Assembly (NCBI GenBank): GCA_963775955.1 | Contig: CAVZKT010000002.1 | Location: forward strand, 228,944 to 292,943 | Direction: 5' to 3' | Length of the DNA: 64,000 nucleotides | Source: Candidatus Moraniibacteriota bacterium | Lineage (GTDB): Bacteria; Patescibacteriota; Minisyncoccia; Moranbacterales; UBA2206 | Made by a program: the position numbers and the translations under genes | Shown here: positions 3,971-61,601 of the stretch, piece after piece | How positions within the stretch are numbered: the stretch's first letter is position 1 | Layout: every line of letters starts with the position of its first letter | Notes under the pieces: generated by a model | Told to the model about the DNA's origin: nothing | Databases searched by the model: none | The model's input: the letters and a program-made list of their open reading frames with translations, nothing else

Positions 3971-4981
3971 ATGCAAAATAAAAAAATAATTCAGTATATA
4001 TTAATCGCCATATCAATCACGATTTCATTTTTCGCCTTTTGGTCGGTTGAGCGGGCGGTGCGCGTTCCGGAAGCCAGTAATTGGCTGGCGCCGATAGTTT
4101 GGTTTTCTCTGCTTTTTATAATTCTTTGTCTTAATATCGCGCTGGTTAAGGATAAAAGAATCATATATCCGGCCATTTTTGCTTCTCTGCTTGCCTGTCT
4201 TGTTTTTTCTCCCAGCTTCTGGCAGTTTTTAGCCGTATTATTCGGATTTCTTTTGCTTCTGGCGGCGCGCGCGCGGATCCAGGGCGATATTGATTATGGC
4301 AAAAAAATCAAACTATGGAGATCTTTGCGTTTTGGAAAATCATATATATATCTGGCGCTGGCGCTGGTCATTTCCGGCCAGTATTATTTTTTGGTCAAAG
4401 ACGCTCCGGCGCAAAATTTCATTCCGGATTTCAAAGTTGACGGCCTGACGGAATATCTTACGCCCAAAATTCTTTCCGCTGTCAGCCCGGATCTTGCGTC
4501 TTCAGTCGGCGGCGAGACGACCATAGATCAATTTATCATCCAAATGCAAAAAAGCCAGTTGGATCAAGCAGGATATAGCCCGGAGAAACTTGCTAAATTG
4601 CCACCCGATCAGCGCGTAGCTATCCAAAAACAAATTGATGCGGAAATAGAAAAAAATCAGGATGCCCTCCTGGAAGAAGGAAGAAAAAAATTCACAGATC
4701 TCGTTGGCCGGCCGGTAAACGGATCAGAAAAAGTTTCCGCTATTTTTTCGGAAATAATAAACAGCAAGGTGAATGACTATTTAAAACCCGGAAATATTAA
4801 CATAGGTTCACTTCCAGTGGCGCCCATCGTTGCGTTCATATTGTTTTTAACGGTTTGGTCGCTGGGATCGTTTTTGGGAATAATTCTCGTACCAATGGCG
4901 GCGGGAATATTTTGGATTCTTGTTCAAGCGAAACTAGTTACGATATCAAAAATATCGGCGGAAGTGGAAGTAATTGAGTAG
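3971..4981 (+). CDS. Polytopic membrane protein, unknown function
   Basis: 336-aa ORF with several hydrophobic helices at both ends and a soluble central region. Confidence 0.6.
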   Translation: MQNKKIIQYILIAISITISFFAFWSVERAVRVPEASNWLAPIVWFSLLFIILCLNIALVKDKRIIYPAIFASLLACLVFSPSFWQFLAVLFGFLLLLAARARIQGDIDYGKKIKLWRSLRFGKSYIYLALALVISGQYYFLVKDAPAQNFIPDFKVDGLTEYLTPKILSAVSPDLASSVGGETTIDQFIIQMQKSQLDQAGYSPEKLAKLPPDQRVAIQKQIDAEIEKNQDALLEEGRKKFTDLVGRPVNGSEKVSAIFSEIINSKVNDYLKPGNINIGSLPVAPIVAFILFLTVWSLGSFLGIILVPMAAGIFWILVQAKLVTISKISAEVEVIE

Positions 4982-6240: not shown

Positions 6241-6389
6241 TTTTTTGTTATGCTGATTTTGTGGTATAATATTTTTATGAACCCGGTAGTGAAATTTTGA
6301 CTAAAAATATTTTTTAAAAATATTCCAGGCCGCCGGGACATAAAAAGCTTAAAGCATAATACAAATTTTGATCTTTCTATTTTTTAGAA

Positions 6390-6911
6390 ATGTCAAAATT
6401 CTACTACCGGGTGAACCCCATCACAATCTTATCCAATCTGGGCGTGCCGACTAATCTGACGCAGGACATAATGCTCTTGCTTTTTGCGGCGCTGGCCAGC
6501 TTTGTTTATGGCACGCTGATCGGCCGCTGGCGCCTGATGACGGTGCTCATAAACATTTACGTGGCTTTCGCGGTTGTTGCGGTTATTCCGGCAGATTTAA
6601 TTTCAGATTATAACACGGAACTGCTGATATTTTTTATTCTGCTGATTGGCATGACGCTTTTGAATAAAAGATTTTTTGACATTTCTTTTTCCGGTTCAGG
6701 CACAAATTATATGATGCGCGTGTTCGCCATGAGCTTTTTGGAAATTGCTTTGGTTTTGAGCATCGTTTTTTCGCTGGTGCCGAAGAAAGTGGCGCTGGGG
6801 TATATTTCCGCCAATGCCTACGGTTATCTCGTTGCCGGCTATGCCCCGCTGATCTGGATGGCGCTGCCACTGGTTTATATGTTTTTTATGTATCGGAAGA
6901 TGCGCCGGTAA
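6390..6911 (+). CDS. Small integral membrane protein, unknown function
   Basis: 173-aa ORF dominated by hydrophobic helices. The antisense ORF is a shadow. Confidence 0.55.
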   Translation: MSKFYYRVNPITILSNLGVPTNLTQDIMLLLFAALASFVYGTLIGRWRLMTVLINIYVAFAVVAVIPADLISDYNTELLIFFILLIGMTLLNKRFFDISFSGSGTNYMMRVFAMSFLEIALVLSIVFSLVPKKVALGYISANAYGYLVAGYAPLIWMALPLVYMFFMYRKMRR

Positions 6912-12945: not shown

Positions 12946-14819
12946 TATTTTTCAAAGAAAAAAAACTTTAAGGGGAGCTGAAATAGAGGATTCCATAATG
13001 ACTATCACTCAAGAGGAAAAAGCTCTTATTGAAACTCCCTACCGCAGAAAAGGGCTTGGCGGGCTCTGGTTTTTTATGGCGGCAGTCTTTGTTGTTTTGG
13101 CTTTCCGCGTATTTTATCTGGATGTCATCAAGGGAGAACATTATGCGGAACTGTCCCGGGGCAATCGTATCCGTTCGCTTGTCATCAAGGCTCCGCGCGG
13201 CAAAATTTTAGATAAATTCGGCAATGCCCTGGTATCAAATATTCCCAGTACTGATGTAATTATTATTCCCTCCGATCTTCCTGAAGAATACGAAAAACGC
13301 AAGCTTCTGGCGCAAACGCTATCCGGCGTTTTGCATATGGAGGAGGGGGATATTGAAACAGCCATTGAAAGCCAGAATCGAAAATTATTGGACCCGGTTT
13401 TACTTAAAGAAAATATTTCCCAGGATGAAGCCCTTATTTTAGCGGAAAAAGCCAAAAATCTTCCCGGAATTTCAGTGGAAAACACTGCCATCCGCAAATA
13501 TGAGAATAGCGTCATATTTTCCCCAATCATCGGCTATGACGGAAAAATTACCCGCGAGGAAATAACAAAAAATCCAGGCTACTCAATGACAGACTATATC
13601 GGTAAAACCGGGTTGGAAAAATATCATGAAGAAGAACTTAAGGGAAAAAATGGCGCCAGTCAAGTTGAGGTTGATTCGCTGGGTAATATTAAAAAAAACT
13701 TGGGAAGCATAAGCCCGCAGGCCGGGGATGATTTAATCCTGAATATCGACGAAGGATTGCAAAAAAAACTGTATGACAGCATGGCGGGCATTTTAGAACA
13801 AACTGGGACTAAAACAGCGGCGGCCGTAGCGATTGATCCGCGAAACGGCGGAGTATTGGCGATGGCCAGCTTGCCGAGTTATGACAATAATTTATTTGCC
13901 CAGGGAATTTCCAACGCGGATTACCAAAAAATTGTAAATGACAAAAACCTCCCGCTTTTTAACCGCGTTATTGCGGGCGAATATCCGCCTGGTTCAACTT
14001 TTAAGCTGGCAGTGGCGGCGGCCGCGCTTACTGAAGGCACGATAACTCCAGACACGAAAGTAAATGACAGCAGTGGAGCTATTAATATCGGTTCCTGGCG
14101 GTTTGGCGACTGGAAAACTCATGGTGTGGTGGATGTGCGAAAGGCGATTGCTGAAAGCTGTGATGTATTTTTTTACAGCGTCGGCGGAGGCTACGGAAAT
14201 ATTCCAGGGATTAGGAATGGATAGAATGAAAAAATATGCAAATCTTTTTGGGTTGGGCAGCCCGACCGGCATAGATCTTCCGGGAGAATCAAGCGGATTT
14301 ATTCCCAGCGAACAATGGAAGCTCGATAAGCTGGGAGAAAAATGGTATATCGGCGATTCCTATCACTGCGCCATCGGCCAGGGCTTTATCACGGTTACTC
14401 CCTTGCAGCTGGTAAATTATATCGCTTCCATTGCCAACGGCGGGATTTTATACGAACCGCATGTTGTCAGTCAAATCAAAAGAAGCGACGGCAGTTTGGA
14501 AACTATAAGTCCAAAAATAATCCGCCAGAATTTTATTTCCAAGAGCGTTATAAATGTTGTGCGCGAAGGCATGCGCCGGACAGTTACCGATGGAACGGCG
14601 CAGACGCTCAAAGATTTGCCGGTAGCAGTGGCGGGAAAAACCGGAACGGCTGAGTTTGGAGGAGAAGGAAAAACCCATGGCTGGTTTGTTTCTTTTGCGC
14701 CCTATGATAATCCGGAAATTGCCATAGCGGTCCTGGTGGAGGGCGGAGGCGAAGGGCACTCAACCGCCGTGCCGATTACGAAAGATGTTTTAAGCTGGTA
14801 TTTTTCTCAACGTAAATAG
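12935..14819 (+). CDS. mrdA: Penicillin-binding protein 2 (elongasome transpeptidase), frame broken near 14204
   Basis: Track ORFs 12935-14224 and 14064-14819 are the N- and C-terminal parts of one PBP2 (STFK active site as PGSTFKLAVA, SCDVFFY, KTGTAE). Dropping one G in CCAGGGATT restores ...GNIPGLGMDRMKKYANLFGLG. Confidence 0.85.
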
Positions 14820-24668: not shown

Positions 24669-24711
24669 AATGGCTTAAAGAAGCCATTCAAAAACCGACG
24701 AGAATGTGGGG

Positions 24712-24740
24712 TTGACCCAGCACTAACTTTGCTTTATACT
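24712..24740 (+). promoter_or_regulatory. Promoter P1 (TTGACC-17-TATACT)
   Basis: Near-consensus hexamers with a 17-nt spacer. The spacer is one arm of a 15-bp inverted repeat. Confidence 0.6.
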
Positions 24741-24800
24741 ATAGGAACTGCGCATAAGGCATTTTGGACATAGTTATCAACAGGGAAAGTTAGTGCTGGG

Positions 24801-24828
24801 TTGACAATATTTACAGAATTGCTAAAAT
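24801..24828 (+). promoter_or_regulatory. Promoter P2 (TTGACA-16-TAAAAT)
   Basis: Perfect -35 placed immediately after the second arm of the inverted repeat. Tandem with P1, about 90 nt apart. Confidence 0.55.
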
Positions 24829-25555: not shown

Positions 25556-26127
25556 ATTCCGAAGCTCGCAAGAGCGAAGGATGGCTAGTACAGAAATGTA
25601 CAAAAACCCTCCTACGTCCGCCTCGGCGGACTTCGGAAGGGTAAAGAGTCTATTCAAACAAAGAATTTATTTTCTTTAAATAAGGTTTATTGATCCGTCT
25701 TCTCCGCCTTCGGCGGATTCGGCGGGATCTAATAAATCTATCGAAAAAAATTATATTTTTTTCGAGATTTATTGAGAGTTTGATCCTAGCTCAGGATGAA
25801 CGCTGGCGGCGTGGATAAGGCATGCAAGTCGAGAGGGTTTAGACCCTCGGCAAACGGGTTAGTAATACATAGGAACTTCCCTGAAGTCGTGAATAATCCG
25901 GAGAAATCCGGAATAATACACGATATGCTCTACGGAGTAAAGATTTATCGCTTCAGGAGGGCCTGTGTCCTATCAGCTTGTTGGTAGTGTAAAGGACTAC
26001 CAAGGCTATGACGGGTAGGGGGTGTGAGAGCACGGCCCCCAACATTGGGACTGAGACACTGCCCAAACTCCTACGGGAGGCTGCAGTCGAGAATATTCGT
26101 CAATGGGCGAAAGCCTGATGGAGCGAC

Positions 26128-26166
<39 letters not shown>

Positions 26167-26858
26167 TTTCTGAGGGAAGAATTTCGTGACGGTACCGCAG
26201 GAATAAGAGGTTACTAACTCTGTGCCAGCAGTAGCGGTAATACAGAGACCTCAAGCGTTATCCGGATTTATTGGGCGTAAAGAGCATGTAGGCGGATATA
26301 TTAGTCAGATGTCAAATCTTCGAGCTCAACTCGAAAACTGCATTTGAAACGGTATGTCTAGAGAGAGTGAGAGATCGATGGAACATATGGTGTAGCAGTG
26401 AAATGCGTTGATATCATATGGAACACCAAAGGCGAAGGCATTCGATTGGCACTCTTCTGACGCTGAGATGCGAAAGCGTGGGTAGCGAATGGGATTAGAT
26501 ACCCCAGTAGTCCACGCCGTAAACGATGCATACTAGGTATTAGGAGAATCGACCCTCCTAGTGTCGTAGCTAACGCGTTAAGTATGCCGCCTGGGAAGTA
26601 CGAGCGCAAGCTTAAAACTCAAAGGAATAGACGGGGATCCGCACAAGTGGTGGAGCATGTGGTTTAATTCGACGGTAAGCGAGAAACCTCACCAGGGCTT
26701 GAAACTTAGCTGCATTGTGCAGAAATGCACAAGCCTTCGAGGGTGCTAAGCAGGCGCTGCACGGTTGTCGTCAGCTCGTGTCGTAAGATGTTCTGTTAAG
26801 TCAGGAAACGAGCGCAACCCCTATCGTGTGTTACATTGTGTCACACGAGACTGCCCAG

Positions 26859-27048
26859 AACTTTGCACAAGAGTGCAAAGTAAATTCCAAATTACAAATC
26901 ACAAATCCCAAACAAATTCAAAATTCTAAAATACAAATTTCAAAACTTTTAAAAAATTGTTTTGGACATTTGAATTTTGGTCATTGGTGCTTGTTTGGAA
27001 TTTGGTGCTTAGGATTTGGTGCTTACTTTGTCACTCGTGGACAAAGTT
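26859..27048 (+). other. 190-nt AT-rich expansion replacing the helix-40 loop of the 16S
   Basis: Sits between ACTGCCCAG and CTGGGAGGAAGGTGGGG, where E. coli has CCAGTGATAAACTGG. It begins and ends with similar hairpins (ACTTTGCAC/GTGCAAAGT and CTTTGTC/GACAAAG). The centre folds as a long A/T helix. Confidence 0.8.
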
Positions 27049-27279
27049 CTGGGAGGAAGGTGGGGATGACGTCAAATCAGCGTGGCCCTTTGACGCCCTG
27101 GGCAACACACGTGCTACAATGGTAAGAACAAAGGGTTGCCAAGCCGTAAGGCGGAGCTAATCCCAAAAATCTGATCTCAGTTCGGATTGAGGTCTGCAAC
27201 TCGACCTCATGAAGCCGGAATCACTAGTAATCGTAGATCAGAATGCTACGGTGAATACGTTCTCGGATCTTGTACTCAC

Positions 27280-28151
27280 AATAAAAGCGCTGGGCAGTTG
27301 TAAATTCTAAGGAGTTTAAATCTCCTCTCCCGATTTCGTCATCGGGATGTAGCTGAAAGGTAGTCGTTATCCGCGAGGATAATGGTGAAGGATCTGGAAG
27401 CAAAAAATAGTCCGACAAAATCCGCCAGTTGGCGGAGCGCGCATCGACCTTCGGAAGGGTGGTGAGCGAAGGGAAGACGCAAGAATAAGCGCAGTCGGAA
27501 TGTTTGGAAAAGAGTTTATAATGACCCCAGGAGATCTTATGCCGTTCTGATTATGTGTTATAATATAATCAGGTAATGAAACTTACGCGGCGTAAGAAGT
27601 CAGCTGAATCGTAGTATCCCGAGTTCTCGGGAGAAGGATTCACTCAGTGCATATGGAATTAAATCCAAATTATATCGTTGGTCTGGTTGATGGAGAAGGA
27701 AGTTTTACAGCTTATGTAAAAAATCCGGATTCAACCAAAAAAGTTCAAAGGCGGACAAAAGTTGAGCCAAGGTTTTTTCTGAAACTTATCGAGAAAGATA
27801 AAAAAATTCTTGATGAGCTTAAAAAATTCTTCGGATGCGGCAATGTTTATTTTCAAAAAGATAAGCGCGCCAATCATCAAAATTGTTATCGTTATGAAGT
27901 AGCCAACCGCAGTGATTTGGAAAAAATAATAGTTCCATTTTTCAAAAGGAATTCTTTGCAGTTACGCTCAAAGAAAAGTGACTTTGAAATGTTTTGTAAG
28001 ATTCTCAAGATGGTTCAAAAAAAGGAACATCTGAAAGAATCGGGATTAAGAAAAATATATAATCTCAAGCAAAAGATGCATTAGAGCTCGTCGTGTGCGG
28101 GAAATCCGCAGGCACGATGGGAACATCAATTCGTAGTTTTACGAAAATATT
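27280..28151 (+). mobile_element. 872-nt intervening sequence in the 16S (E. coli ~1397-1400 region) carrying a homing endonuclease gene
   Basis: Interrupts the universal GYACACACCGCCCGT: TTGTACTCAC | insertion | CGCCCGTCACACC. Contains structured GC-rich RNA flanks and the LAGLIDADG ORF. Confidence 0.85.
27653..28084 (+). CDS. LAGLIDADG homing endonuclease (single-motif type)
   Basis: NPNYIVGLVDGEGSF is the LAGLIDADG motif. 143-145 aa, the size of the homodimeric I-CreI-like class. Located inside the rRNA insertion. Confidence 0.85.
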   Translation: MELNPNYIVGLVDGEGSFTAYVKNPDSTKKVQRRTKVEPRFFLKLIEKDKKILDELKKFFGCGNVYFQKDKRANHQNCYRYEVANRSDLEKIIVPFFKRNSLQLRSKKSDFEMFCKILKMVQKKEHLKESGLRKIYNLKQKMH

Positions 28152-40687: not shown

Positions 40688-41437
40688 ATGATTTGGGCAC
40701 CATATCTTGGAGCGCGCATTCCGAATATGAAGGGCGTGGGAAAAATCTACAAGGCATTTTCAAATGGTAATTTTACATATTCATCTCACGCTGCTATTTT
40801 TGTTGGTTTTACGCCAGGCAATCCGCAATTGAGAGAAACATTTATAAATCCAAAATTCGGAAAAATATTTAAAATAAAAACAGACGGAGATTATATTGGC
40901 CCCGGCATTGATCATGTAGTACTGGATGGTAAAAATATAATCGATGGTTTTAAGCGTAAGGGGTATGTGACAATCGGAACAGCTGCAATGGATTGGTTTG
41001 ATCCAGAATCAGAATCTGGACAGACATTGATGGCTGACTTTGATCATTTTCTATATTCCAAAACTGATTTTTTAAGGCAAAAAGAATATGTTATTCAGAA
41101 AATTACTGAATGCAACGATAATCCAATATTTGTATTTATGAATATAGGTGAAACGCATGTTCCTTATTATTTTAAAGGGGCACCCTGGTCTAAGCACGAC
41201 AATCCCTGTGTGCCTTTTGGAAGCGATAATTCGCTTGAAAAGAGTAGTTTCAGACAGGGGAAATGCCTCGAGTTTATTGATAATAATATAAAAGAAATAC
41301 TGGATTTGTTTAAGGATGATAATATAATAATTTGTTCTGATCATGGTGATTGCTGGGGTGAAGATGGATTGTGGGAGCACGCAATTCATCATGAAAAAAC
41401 CGTAACTGTTCCGTTGCTCTTTAAGCTGGAGAAATAA
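40688..41437 (+). CDS. Alkaline-phosphatase-superfamily (sulfatase/phosphodiesterase-like) protein, apparently lacking the usual N-terminal metal/nucleophile block
   Basis: C-terminal SDHGDCWGEDGLWEHAIHH resembles the SDHG..GE.G...H motif of the superfamily. The frame is open for about 20 codons upstream with no start codon. Confidence 0.45.
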   Translation: MIWAPYLGARIPNMKGVGKIYKAFSNGNFTYSSHAAIFVGFTPGNPQLRETFINPKFGKIFKIKTDGDYIGPGIDHVVLDGKNIIDGFKRKGYVTIGTAAMDWFDPESESGQTLMADFDHFLYSKTDFLRQKEYVIQKITECNDNPIFVFMNIGETHVPYYFKGAPWSKHDNPCVPFGSDNSLEKSSFRQGKCLEFIDNNIKEILDLFKDDNIIICSDHGDCWGEDGLWEHAIHHEKTVTVPLLFKLEK

Positions 41438-55095: not shown

Positions 55096-56355
55096 ATGTT
55101 ACAGTCTAAGCTATTCACTAAAACCCAAAAAGAAGCGCCTAAGGACGAGGCGAGTATCAACGCCCAGCTCTTAATAAGAGCCGGCTTTGTTGATAAATTA
55201 ATGGCGGGAGTTTACACCTTTTTACCGTTAGGACTGCGCGTGATGAAAAAGATTGAAAATATCATCCGCGAGGAAATGAACGCCATCGGCGGGCAGGAAA
55301 TTTTTATGCCCGCGCTCCAGCCCAAAGAAAACTGGCTGAAAACCGGACGCTGGGACGCGATGGATGATCTGTATAAAGTAAAGGACGCCAGCGGCAAAGA
55401 ATTCGCCCTGGGGCCGACCCACGAAGAAATCGTGGTGCCTTTGGCGCAAAAATATGTCAATTCTTACCGCGATTTTCCGTTTTACGTTTATCAGTTCCAG
55501 AATAAATTTCGCATGGAACTACGGGCGAAATCAGGACTTTTGCGCGGGCGGGAGTTTATGATGAAGGATTTGTATTCCTTCCACTTAAGCGAAGAAGATT
55601 TCAGCGCATATTATGAAAAAGCGGCCAAGGCCTATGAAAAAATTTTTCAAAGAATAGGGATTGGCGAAAAGACTTATAAAACTTTCGCGTCGGGTGGATC
55701 CTTTTCCAAATATTCCCACGAATACCAGACCGTGACTCCGGCCGGCGAGGATCTCATTCACATTTGCAACCAATGCGGGCTGGCGATTAACGACGAAATC
55801 AAAAGTGAAACCGAAGCATGCCCGAGTTGCAAAGGCGCGGATTTTCGCAAGGAAAAAGCTATTGAGGTTGGGAATATTTTTAATTTAAAAAATAAATTCA
55901 CCAAGCCGTTTGATTTCAAGATAAAAGATGAAAAAGGCGGGGAAAAAGAAGTGATTATGGGTTGCTATGGCCTGGGGCTTAGCCGGCTTATGGGAACAAT
56001 CGTGGAAGTTTTTCATGACGAGAAAGGCATTCTTTGGCCGGAAGCCGTAGCGCCGTTTAAAGCGCATTTGATTAGTCTGGGAAAAAATAGCGAGGCGGAA
56101 AAGATTTACGCGGATTTGCAGAAAAAAAATATTGAAGTGCTTTTTGACGACCGCGATGTAAGCGCCGGAGAAAAATTTGCTGACGCGGATCTGATCGGCA
56201 TTCCGTATCGCGTAGTCGTGAGTGAAAAATCACTGGCCGGCGGCGGACCCGCCAGCAACGCTTCGCGTAGCGATACGGGTTGGGTGGAAGTCAAAAAAAG
56301 AAGCGAAAAAGAGGGAAAGATTGTTGAAATATTGAAACTCTCAAAGATGCTATAA
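55096..56355 (+). CDS. proS: Proline--tRNA ligase, short form lacking the INS editing domain
   Basis: Class II motifs: FMPALQP, FRMELRAKSGLLRGREFMMKD (motif 2) and GCYGLGLSRLMG (motif 3). Only about 60 aa separate motifs 2 and 3, including CNQC...CPSC. Anticodon-binding domain at the C-terminus. Confidence 0.9.
   Translation: MLQSKLFTKTQKEAPKDEASINAQLLIRAGFVDKLMAGVYTFLPLGLRVMKKIENIIREEMNAIGGQEIFMPALQPKENWLKTGRWDAMDDLYKVKDASGKEFALGPTHEEIVVPLAQKYVNSYRDFPFYVYQFQNKFRMELRAKSGLLRGREFMMKDLYSFHLSEEDFSAYYEKAAKAYEKIFQRIGIGEKTYKTFASGGSFSKYSHEYQTVTPAGEDLIHICNQCGLAINDEIKSETEACPSCKGADFRKEKAIEVGNIFNLKNKFTKPFDFKIKDEKGGEKEVIMGCYGLGLSRLMGTIVEVFHDEKGILWPEAVAPFKAHLISLGKNSEAEKIYADLQKKNIEVLFDDRDVSAGEKFADADLIGIPYRVVVSEKSLAGGGPASNASRSDTGWVEVKKRSEKEGKIVEILKLSKML
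56248..56283. repeat. GC-rich hairpin element, copy C, in frame inside proS
   Basis: CCCGCCAGCAACGCTTCGCGTAGCGATACGGGTTGG encodes PASNASRSDTGW. 29/36 identical to intergenic copy A (28486-28521). Confidence 0.7.
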
Positions 56356-56362
56356 AAGTTTC

Positions 56363-56504
56363 AAAAAGAATCGCAAAAATATTTTCTTTGGGGGCTTTTG
56401 TTAAAGTTAAGGTTATTTTAATTTAACTTTGCGGCTTTATTTAAAATTTTTAGACTAATTATTTACATCTGACCCCTGAAAGAAAAATTTTTGCGATTCT
56501 TTTT
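56363..56504. repeat. 18-bp perfect inverted repeat with a 106-nt spacer (proS-ispH intergenic)
   Basis: AAAAAGAATCGCAAAAAT (56363-56380) and ATTTTTGCGATTCTTTTT (56487-56504). Confidence 0.8.
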
Positions 56505-61055: not shown

Positions 61056-61601
61056 ATGGCAATATCTAAAAAAATTATCAAATATCTGGAGAACAACAAG
61101 TATAAATACGAAATTGTGGAGCATAAAACCACCTATACCGCCTGGGACACGGCGCAGACGGAAAAAATCAAGCCGCAGGAGGTGGCGAAGGCTTTAGTTA
61201 TGAAAGCTGACGGCGATTATGTTTTGGCGCTGGTGCCTGCCAACCGGAATCTGGACAAGCAAAAATTGCTGAAAGTAATAAATTCTGCCAGGAAGAAAAC
61301 TATTCACCCTGTGGAATACCGCGGAGCGGTATCCCGCCAGGGCGGGATATTCCACAGGGCAAGAAAAATTGATTTTGCCAAAGAGGCCTGGATGAAAAAA
61401 AGTCTGCCTGGCAAAGTCGGCGCCACTCCGCCATTCGCTAAAATTTTAAAAATAGATATTTTTATTGATTCCCTGCTGGCCAAAAACAAAAAAATATATT
61501 TAGGATCGGGGGAATACACAAACTCTGTTAGAGTAAGTACCGGACAATATTTAAAGATAGAAGATCCAGTCAAGGGCAGTTTTAGCAAAAAGAAAAATTA
61601 G
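61056..61601 (+). CDS. YbaK/ProX-type aminoacyl-tRNA deacylase-like protein with an internal insertion
   Basis: VKALVMKADGDYVLALVPANRNLD and GATPPF...IFIDSLL...IYLGSG resemble YbaK/EbsC blocks. Confidence 0.6.
   Translation: MAISKKIIKYLENNKYKYEIVEHKTTYTAWDTAQTEKIKPQEVAKALVMKADGDYVLALVPANRNLDKQKLLKVINSARKKTIHPVEYRGAVSRQGGIFHRARKIDFAKEAWMKKSLPGKVGATPPFAKILKIDIFIDSLLAKNKKIYLGSGEYTNSVRVSTGQYLKIEDPVKGSFSKKKN
61307..61359. repeat. 53-nt GC-rich nested palindrome inside the ybaK-like ORF
   Basis: Outer arms CCCTGTGGAATA / TATTCCACAGGG. Inner hairpins TACCGC-GGA-GCGGTA and TCCCGCC-AG-GGCGGGA. Confidence 0.8.

Follow-up and report, generated by a model that had tools for sequence, protein, structure and literature searches.

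We analysed a 64-kb stretch (64,000 nt, hereafter the window) of contig CAVZKT010000002.1 from a Candidatus Moraniibacteriota bacterium, covering positions 228,944 to 292,943 of the forward strand. Towards its end lies a gene for a YbaK/ProX-type deacylase, and within the open reading frame (ORF) of this gene a 53-nt nested palindrome is read as ...TIHPVEYRGAVSRQGGIFHRARK... The features of the locus are listed here in coordinates of the window.

61056..61601, forward strand: host gene, encoding a YbaK/ProX-type aminoacyl-tRNA trans-editing (deacylase) domain protein of 181 aa (ORF, Pfam, homologues, AlphaFold2, Foldseek).
61302..61361, forward strand: inserted coding segment of 20 codons, I83-A102, IHPVEYRGAVSRQGGIFHRA (protein and DNA alignments with empty-site alleles).
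61303..61306, forward strand: TTCA, which prolongs the left arm on its 5' side and is conserved (R-T-T-Y-A in the family, from a logo of 246 element ends).
61307..61318, forward strand: left arm, or terminal inverted repeat, CCCTGTGGAATA (same arm in at least 120 metagenome loci).
61319..61329, forward strand: inner hairpin 1, CCGC-GGA-GCGG, perfect; with the flanking TA bases, TACCGC-GGA-GCGGTA.
61330..61331, forward strand: TA linker between the hairpins (in the 50-nt class, T in 24/25 and A in 24/25 elements).
61332..61347, forward strand: inner hairpin 2, TCCCGCC-AG-GGCGGGA, perfect (sequence inspection and folding).
61348..61359, forward strand: right arm TATTCCACAGGG, a perfect 12-bp complement of the left arm.

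The palindrome therefore runs, over 61307-61359, in the order CCCTGTGGAATA, CCGCGGAGCGG, TA, TCCCGCCAGGGCGGGA and TATTCCACAGGG. TTCA directly precedes the left arm in every YbaK copy, and the element measures 57 nt with this extension and 53 nt as the palindrome alone. The initial annotation, made from the letters of the sequence, had described a nested palindrome with perfect 12-bp arms around two hairpins in a GC-rich patch, and all of these points were borne out: the GC content of the element is 0.66, as compared with 0.39 in the rest of the host gene and 0.40 in the window. The cloverleaf-like fold proposed there was returned by folding as a predicted three-way junction of the arms and the two hairpins (-35.6 kcal/mol, z = -5.8), which none of 200 shuffles of the element equalled or bettered. 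The copy is open in all three forward frames. A perfect 12-bp inverted repeat alone is not rare, as a few others of 12-14 bp are present in the window; it is the nesting, combined with membership of the family described below, that excludes a chance origin.

The host ORF matched the Pfam family PF04073 (tRNA_edit) with an E-value of 2.5e-18 and 66.8 bits (cut-off 25.5), the match being broken into two stretches at the palindrome. Its homologues, from Moranbacteria, Parcubacteria and other Patescibacteria, are annotated as YbaK/EbsC or Ala-tRNA(Pro) deacylase. The initial annotation had taken the palindrome for an in-frame insertion, and alignment with these homologues upheld this view: the corresponding loop (consensus RKK-xGxKNY-KKIDF) has 7 residues in 110 of the 120 best homologues and 22 in the window protein. 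Specifically, the insert takes the place of the last 5 residues of the 7-residue loop (typically GxKNY), with a net gain of 15 aa. An AlphaFold2 model based on 105 sequences had an overall confidence score (pLDDT) of 82.7, with values below 50 only at residues 84-97, the loop which joins helix 68-82 and strand 105-107. The model superposes on the YbaK/ProX structures 3op6, 1wdv, 2cx5, 2dxa and 1dbx, the top Foldseek matches, with target-normalised TM-scores of 0.82-0.89 for the first four. The short loops of the homologues, the modelled loop and the superposition on YbaK structures together place the extra segment in a surface loop. The host protein is thus a YbaK/ProX-type deacylase with an otherwise normal predicted YbaK fold and a putative substrate specificity, and the palindrome is a real in-frame insertion in its gene. 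An assembly artefact is unlikely, because the identical junction recurs in independent assemblies of JGI and NCBI (loci L001, L002 and L130). The junction sequence of L001 is also shared by the metagenome contig L250.

The 12-bp arms occur once in the 64-kb window, and a search for them elsewhere, as the initial annotation had recommended, revealed a dispersed family. Scanning one genome per species with the pattern CCCTGTNNAATA-N20-45-TATTNNACAGGG returned at least 120 loci, with several contigs per metagenome-assembled genome (MAG; e.g. WOR-3 CSMAG_2245 and RS_17_14). These loci belong to Patescibacteria (Moran-, Doudna-, Niyogi- and Saccharibacteria), Bacteroidota, WOR-3, Stahlbacteria, Cloacimonadota, Desulfobacterota, Armatimonadota, Anaerolineales and others. 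A scan of metagenomes for GGAATA arms also gave at least 120 loci, with 101 distinct interiors in 128 copies. By our own estimate, only some tens of matches would be expected by chance in 596 Gb, and most of the matches are considered truly related because they share flanks and hairpin plan. Overall, in more than 240 fetched loci, the arms are identical or near-identical and the interiors variable. The near-invariant 12-nt arms CCCTGTKRAATA...TATTYMACAGGG (family ends, inverted: RTTYACCCTGTKRAATA) are often extended to RTTYA...TRAAY, the flank logo lengthening them by R-T-T-Y-A, and the elements span 44-67 nt. Most copies are found outside long ORFs (116 of 130, counting the genome scan, the YbaK loci and the window); at the AT-rich loci, 48 copies were in co-directional, 13 in divergent and 12 in convergent contexts, and 10 were intragenic. 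One copy (L036) is located amid ftsX, ftsE and prfB. In the WOR-3/Stahlbacteria loci L019-L128 (e.g. L019 2880-3000), a 62-nt subfamily was observed within a longer, conserved unit, GTATTGTCAAAAATCTAACCACAGATTCA-element-GGAACCACAGAG, with the direct repeat AACCACAGA on both sides; the unit often adjoins a divergently oriented ribosome-binding site.

Further members of the family are read in frame within other genes. The LepA/EF4 copy of a Moranbacterium (L012) amounts to an insert of about 22 residues relative to the sequence of the Thermus thermophilus EF4 structure, and other copies were found in RecG (L165), a GT1 glycosyltransferase (L025), histidine kinases (L136 and L197) and DegT/DnrJ/EryC1 aminotransferases of three lineages (L055/L191/L253, L127 and L246), where they occupy the same loop between EY and KRAG. 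The arms are read in all three frames, as HPVEY...FHR, PCGI...IPQG and LWN...YSTG. Within the DegT clade of Cloacimonadota only proteins P0121-P0123 have the insert, and P0124 (83% identity) lacks it; it evolves at the rate of its host gene, with amino-acid substitutions and with one arm mutation (L253). The DegT copies have differing interiors without hairpins, and the length of this loop also varies naturally among homologues. A design free of stop codons in all six frames was rejected as a family trait, as just 2 of 109 GGAATA-type cores have it. Two unrelated proteins on GC-rich metagenome contigs (L136 and L182) have in common the peptide GGAEARPVEYASGGAGHAAEVIPRG(T/K)GQA, which probably derives from a degenerate in-frame relative of the element. 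The window itself has a second CCCTGT...ACAGGG match at 41204-41259 (ORF 40688-41437; 0.02 expected by chance), which encloses the hairpin AAGCGA-TAAT-TCGCTT, encodes the in-frame peptide NPCVPFGSDNSLEKSSFRQGKC and lacks the AATA box; either decay of a relative or mere chance could explain this match.

The internal plan of the family is best seen in its shorter members. Twin hairpins are present in 66 of 217 unique elements, mainly in the 48-56-nt classes, whose interiors fold with a median z of -2.2 to -2.5, while those of the 57-69-nt classes behave like shuffles (median z about 0). The plan of the 50-nt class (12-nt arm, 5-bp hairpin, TA, 4-bp hairpin, 12-nt arm, each hairpin having a 3-nt loop) is fitted by 24 of 25 unique elements and leaves no unpaired nucleotides at the junction. 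In the alignment of this class 97% of cells are paired, a figure that falls to 36-45% when the partners are slid, and two-sided changes were seen at all nine hairpin pairs. The covariation score was 0.395 as against 0.126 in shuffles and was reached by none of 500 shuffles; it is to be read with three points in mind, namely that the search pattern fixed the arms, that each element was oriented so as to match the plan, and that the plan itself came from the same sequences. Compensatory variants of hairpin 1 are CCCGC-GGA-GCGGG (L003/L004) and CCGC-TAC-GCGG (L025), and a hairpin related to hairpin 2, ATCCCGC-CCA-GCGGGAT, occurs in the LepA copy (L012). The same architecture as in the window copy was found in a variant shared by the YbaK proteins P0005 and P0027, CCCTGTTAAATA-CCCGCGGAGCGGG-TA-CGCCAAGGGCG-TATTTAACAGGG, in which the outer stem and both hairpins show compensatory changes.

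Comparison of the YbaK alleles points to horizontal spread. Two further YbaK proteins, P0002 and P0003, have the same insert as the window protein (P0001). The 57-nt element of the window is identical to that of L001 at 57/57 positions and to that of L130 at 56/57, in genes which are otherwise only 74-75% identical among these carriers (binomial P about 1e-7). Identity falls off abruptly at the borders of the element, being uniform at 71-80% in the flanks right up to them. With the loop left out, P0001 shares 90.6% of its residues with the empty protein P0004 and only 77-78% with its co-carriers P0002 and P0003; for P0003 the identity to the empty P0043 is 90.6%, and for P0005 it is 94% to the empty P0075 as against 69% to its co-carrier P0027. 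The carriers are thus polyphyletic, each being nearer to an empty allele than to its co-carriers, and from the three carrier lineages of which this holds we conclude that the element spread horizontally. Each element variant has its own fixed junction in YbaK. Recombination does occur at the ybaK locus, since a filled allele (L003, 1683-2237) and an empty one (L254, 373-873) form a mosaic pair, whose identity is 100% from the loop as far as the stop codon and about 90% on the upstream side. These two alleles come from sequencing runs with neighbouring accession numbers, and the breakpoint lies exactly at the insertion loop. As judged from the sequences, the element may have spread by repeated site-specific insertion or by inter-allele recombination with very short conversion tracts.

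The loop entered by the element is a hot spot for several element families. P0009 and P0111 have an unrelated palindrome of 70-84 nt, CCCCCACACCAA...TTGGTGTGGGGG, at this position, and P0100 has a palindrome of a third kind. Unrelated palindromes were observed in the same loop of YbaK genes of other Moranbacteria (L006 2446-3030, L007 1257-1826 and L008 152-691), one of them being CCCCCACACCAAAA...TTTTGGTGTGGGGG, of about 84 nt, and another TCCTTCGCC-AATGCTTCGGT-GGGCGAGGGA, with the peptide SFANASVGEG. The initial annotation had set the YbaK palindrome apart from an insertion in proS of the same window, and had suggested that coding regions of this organism tolerate such elements. The proS insert is indeed a separate in-frame hairpin of 36 nt, PASNASRSDTGW (56248-56283, ORF 55096-56355), located in the anticodon-binding domain of prolyl-tRNA synthetase (ProRS); the window and L129 have it, whereas L001/L002 do not. 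Tolerance is evident both from the at least three unrelated palindromes in the YbaK loop of other lineages and from the in-frame family members in LepA, RecG, DegT and other genes. The occurrence of both insertions in genes of prolyl-tRNA quality control, which had been put down as a possible coincidence, is taken to be just that, as the remaining host genes are unrelated to this process. The proS insert region is identical at 46/48 nucleotides between the window and L129, in proteins only 69% identical, and its core ACGC-TTC-GCGT resembles the hairpins of the main family. At the 5' end of the L129 proS (about 3983-4052) there is also a sister palindrome with the arms ACCCCGTTAGAAAT...ATTTCTAACGGGGTGAA, which is called as a 23-residue N-terminal extension of ProRS and whose right arm may supply the real GTG start. 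Arms similar to CCCCGTTAGAT adjoin WOR-3 copies.

Several features of the family are those of mobile DNA. Identical 4-nt direct repeats immediately outside the arms were found in 64 of 231 unique copies, as compared with about 1/256 by chance; they include CCAG, CTGG, CCTG, CCCG and CAAG and differ from locus to locus within one subfamily, so that by sequence the 4-nt flanks of the GC-rich subfamilies look like target-site duplications. In tandem arrays neighbouring elements share a single 4-mer (L180, L190 and L207), and nested and tandem copies were seen at L078, L038, L018 and L016. The arrays lie at L207 1109-1176, L190 939-1059 and L180 1788-1904, their shared 4-mers being CTGG, CTTG or CCAG, and L207 further contains 32-nt mini-elements, read as WPCGILVSIPQG repeats in a 190-codon ORF.

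Searches of databases and of the literature gave no counterpart. Viral contigs had no match to the element, nor did plasmids in BLAST searches for which the window copy and one of the Bacteroidota type served as queries, and a Pfam search of the translated element peptides was likewise without a match. At gathering thresholds, Rfam returned only 16S rRNA, tRNA, T-box and DUF805 matches for the window and 18 loci, all of them away from the element; in E-value mode, 61270-61400 gave only chance-level matches to microRNAs and CRISPR direct repeats. In the literature we found general papers on MITEs (miniature transposable elements with inverted repeats), repetitive extragenic palindromic (REP) sequences and Rickettsia palindromic elements (RPEs), and neither the arm sequences nor such a family. 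The repeats of about 50 bases thus apparently form an undescribed palindromic family of many bacterial phyla.

We propose, with a probability of roughly 0.7, that the feature in the window is a translated, MITE/RPE-like passenger element. The palindrome would be one copy of a small, non-autonomous, MITE-like repeat, defined by its 12-nt terminal inverted repeats and, in the 48-56-nt classes, by two covarying short hairpins inside. This copy would have entered a permissive, disordered surface loop of the YbaK/ProX-type deacylase gene with the frame kept, and the intact frame suggests that transcription and translation of the gene most likely include the element, as a loop of 18-20 residues. Mobilisation in trans by a transposase, suggested by the 4-nt flanks of the GC-rich subfamilies, would be the likeliest route of movement, alongside spread between alleles by recombination. 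The element is probably a tolerated passenger and not a working part of the enzyme, a neutrality that we infer.

A number of observations weigh against this proposal. The window has only a single copy, and the exact interior of that copy was found in YbaK genes only, among the matches listed. The AT-rich subfamily to which it belongs has complementary TTYA...TRAA flanks with no consistent direct repeat outside them, and the window copy itself is without a target-site duplication. Neither clean boundaries nor a target-site duplication could be seen in the empty/filled pairs (window/L131, L055/L252 and L003/L254). In each of its three carrier lineages the window-type insert replaces the same 5 residues of the loop, and this would be odd for independent transposition. 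Among the fetched loci there was no pair of solo arms at the scale of an insertion sequence (IS) and no transposase, although no dedicated search was made, and the genes next to the fetched elements belong to no recurrent family. Translation, moreover, is read from the frame. Finally, the near-invariance of the arms across phyla and the 100% identity of this copy in alleles which otherwise agree at about 75% of positions could reflect selection for a host function.

These last two points also speak for a different explanation, in which the element is a functional structured nucleic-acid module, REP-like, whose arms and three-way junction act on DNA or RNA, be it as a binding site of a host protein, a stabiliser or processing site of mRNA or a signal in supercoiling or replication, and whose YbaK copy is kept by selection. 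The strong compensatory covariation in the hairpins would fit such a role, as would the many copies between co-directional genes in operons (48/13/12 in the counts given above; ftsX-ftsE-prfB at L036). Folding showed no preference for either strand, however, the sense strand being more stable in 23 cases and less stable in 32 (p = 0.10), with 66 G-U pairs in sense as against 67 in antisense orientation, which argues against selection on mRNA structure specifically. The 57-69-nt interiors fold no better than shuffles, the intragenic DegT copy decays at the rate of its host with a mutated arm in L253, Rfam holds no match, and the flanks resembling target-site duplications, together with the nested and tandem copies, point to mobility. 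The invariance of the arms is, besides, partly circular, because the search patterns required them. We regard a functional module as unlikely.

Far more improbable is an element that lies in the gene and escapes translation, either as an RNA segment that is removed or through ribosome bypass over HPVEYRGAVSRQGGIFHR. Ribosome bypassing is known from the byp elements of yeast mitochondria and from phage T4 gene 60, and a compact, very stable GC-rich structure in an AT-rich gene would suit it. The copies in YbaK, LepA, RecG and DegT are nevertheless all in the frame of their host without a stop codon, and the DegT copy accumulates amino-acid substitutions at the host rate; there was no match to a ribozyme or intron family, and the junctions have no unpaired nucleotides for a catalytic core. 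Hardly any credence is left for an ordinary, vertically inherited loop that is palindromic by accident, or for an assembly chimera. Loop length does vary naturally among YbaK homologues, but the palindrome is far beyond chance (z = -5.8), the same arms recur at hundreds of non-coding loci, the carriers are polyphyletic and the junction is repeated in the JGI and NCBI assemblies.

By analogy, the closest known counterparts of the passenger element proposed here are RPEs and other intragenic MITEs; the bacterial intragenic MITEs comprise RPEs, Coxiella QMITE1 and intragenic copies of the enterobacterial repetitive intergenic consensus, ERIC (PMC10969869). Like RPEs, the present elements are short, palindromic, non-autonomous dispersed repeats that encode no transposase and are fused in frame to unrelated genes at fold-compatible sites (here YbaK, LepA, RecG, GT1, DegT and histidine kinases). 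They are set apart from RPEs by host, length and plan: they measure 44-67 nt (53 nt in the window) as against about 100-150 bp, form a three-way junction with two mini-hairpins, lie mostly between genes and occur in many phyla, among bacteria that are largely uncultivated, as opposed to one genus, the host of the window copy being a bacterium of the Candidate Phyla Radiation (CPR) and not a Rickettsia.

Classical MITEs have terminal inverted repeats and target-site duplications and are moved in trans by a DDE transposase. The family shares with them its conserved terminal inverted repeats of 12-16 nt, variable interiors, small size without a transposase ORF, several copies per genome and nested copies; in its GC-rich subfamilies there are 4-nt direct repeats that would correspond to target-site duplications, one repeat being shared in tandem arrays. 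It differs in its extreme shortness, in that no partner IS with the same ends was present among the fetched loci, and in the AT-rich subfamily, including the window copy, which has inverted TTYA/TRAA flanks and no target-site duplication. Presumably IS1380-like elements would be matched by ends of the form CC...GG together with a duplication of 4 bp; the motif CCCTGT, as we take it, resembles IS5/PIF-type ends. Both are unconfirmed leads.

REP elements and their paired form, REPINs, go with REP-associated tyrosine transposases (RAYTs) of the Y1 HUH type (PMC3733652). They resemble the present family as short, mostly extragenic palindromes, often within operons, with hairpins kept by compensatory change. 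The arms here have no GTAG or CGTC tag, however, and conservation is found in the outer stem, which encloses two hairpins. A Y1 (IS200/RAYT-like) transposase gene with GTAG hairpins TTTGTAGCGGTCTCACCGCTACAA on both sides was observed at L001 13720-14440 (the RAYT-like gene itself at 13753-14406) and at L129 19490-20068; these flanking hairpins differ from the element under study, and the arrangement looks like a REPtron in a CPR genome, unrelated to the element. Searching the other loci by tblastn for RAYTs found none. A RAYT/REP system was rejected because the Y1 gene of L001 has GTAG hairpins of its own and the other loci have no RAYT.

Integron recombination sites of the attC type are likewise imperfect palindromes, comparable in size, whose single strands may fold, and GTTAAAT/ATTTAAC in some arms resembles the R-box consensus. 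The boxes of attC sites ('59-base elements') follow the consensus 5'-RYYYAAC...GTTRRRY-3'. Here their polarity with respect to the loop is the opposite, 5'-GTTAAAT...ATTTAAC-3', and an attC reading was rejected on this ground; the variants GTGGAAT and GTGAAAT do not fit the R-box either, and neither a cassette context nor an integrase was seen nearby. Other candidates were discarded on simple structural grounds, namely a hammerhead or other ribozyme (no unpaired junction nucleotides), a terminator (no T-run) and CRISPR (no regular spacing). Overall, the element differs from its known analogues in its very small size, its three-way-junction plan and its ends shared across phyla, its mobilising enzyme not having been found among the fetched loci.

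Three other repeats were observed in the window. The spacer between proS and lytB is filled by a 142-nt intergenic inverted repeat (56363-56504; 32-nt arms, 84% complementary), and the whole spacer folds at -46.7 kcal/mol; since the corresponding spacer of L129 has only 56 nt, this repeat may be another MITE-like insertion. A 132-nt intergenic palindrome at 6281-6412, with the ends ACCCGGTAGTGAAAT...ACTACCGGGTGAA and 21-nt arms (90% complementary), has a GTAG tag, and its TGAA flank resembles the one seen in the main family. Perfect 16-nt arms, GACCCAGCACTAACTTT...AAAGTTAGTGCTGGGTTGAC, with about 20 bp paired in the fold, delimit a third repeat at 24711-24805, in a region without ORFs that lies about 1 kb upstream of the 16S rRNA gene (25768-27331).

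If the element in ybaK is indeed a translated passenger, the finding would carry the selfish palindromes of the Rickettsia type, translated within housekeeping proteins, to the CPR and to at least half a dozen other phyla. The family would then rank among the smallest known repeats that look mobile, and its ends would be conserved from phylum to phylum. In the annotation of MAG proteomes, such elements would give rise to spurious N-terminal extensions, to odd loops and to Pfam matches that are split; in evolution, they would be a recurrent source of new surface loops in conserved enzymes such as YbaK, ProRS, LepA, RecG and DegT. The near-invariance of the ends would imply a partner protein. 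On a more speculative view, which we advance only tentatively, there is a hitherto undescribed superfamily of palindromic three-way-junction elements of about 50 nt, spread over bacterial phyla, whose 12-nt ends might be recognised by a widely conserved mobilising enzyme or host factor. It is an equally tentative part of this view that the elements repeatedly become parts of essential proteins, and again that an identical copy was recently installed at one junction of divergent Moranbacteria ybaK alleles. Such an installation at a single junction, if true, would imply a site-specific, homing-like or recombination-driven spread in place of random transposition.

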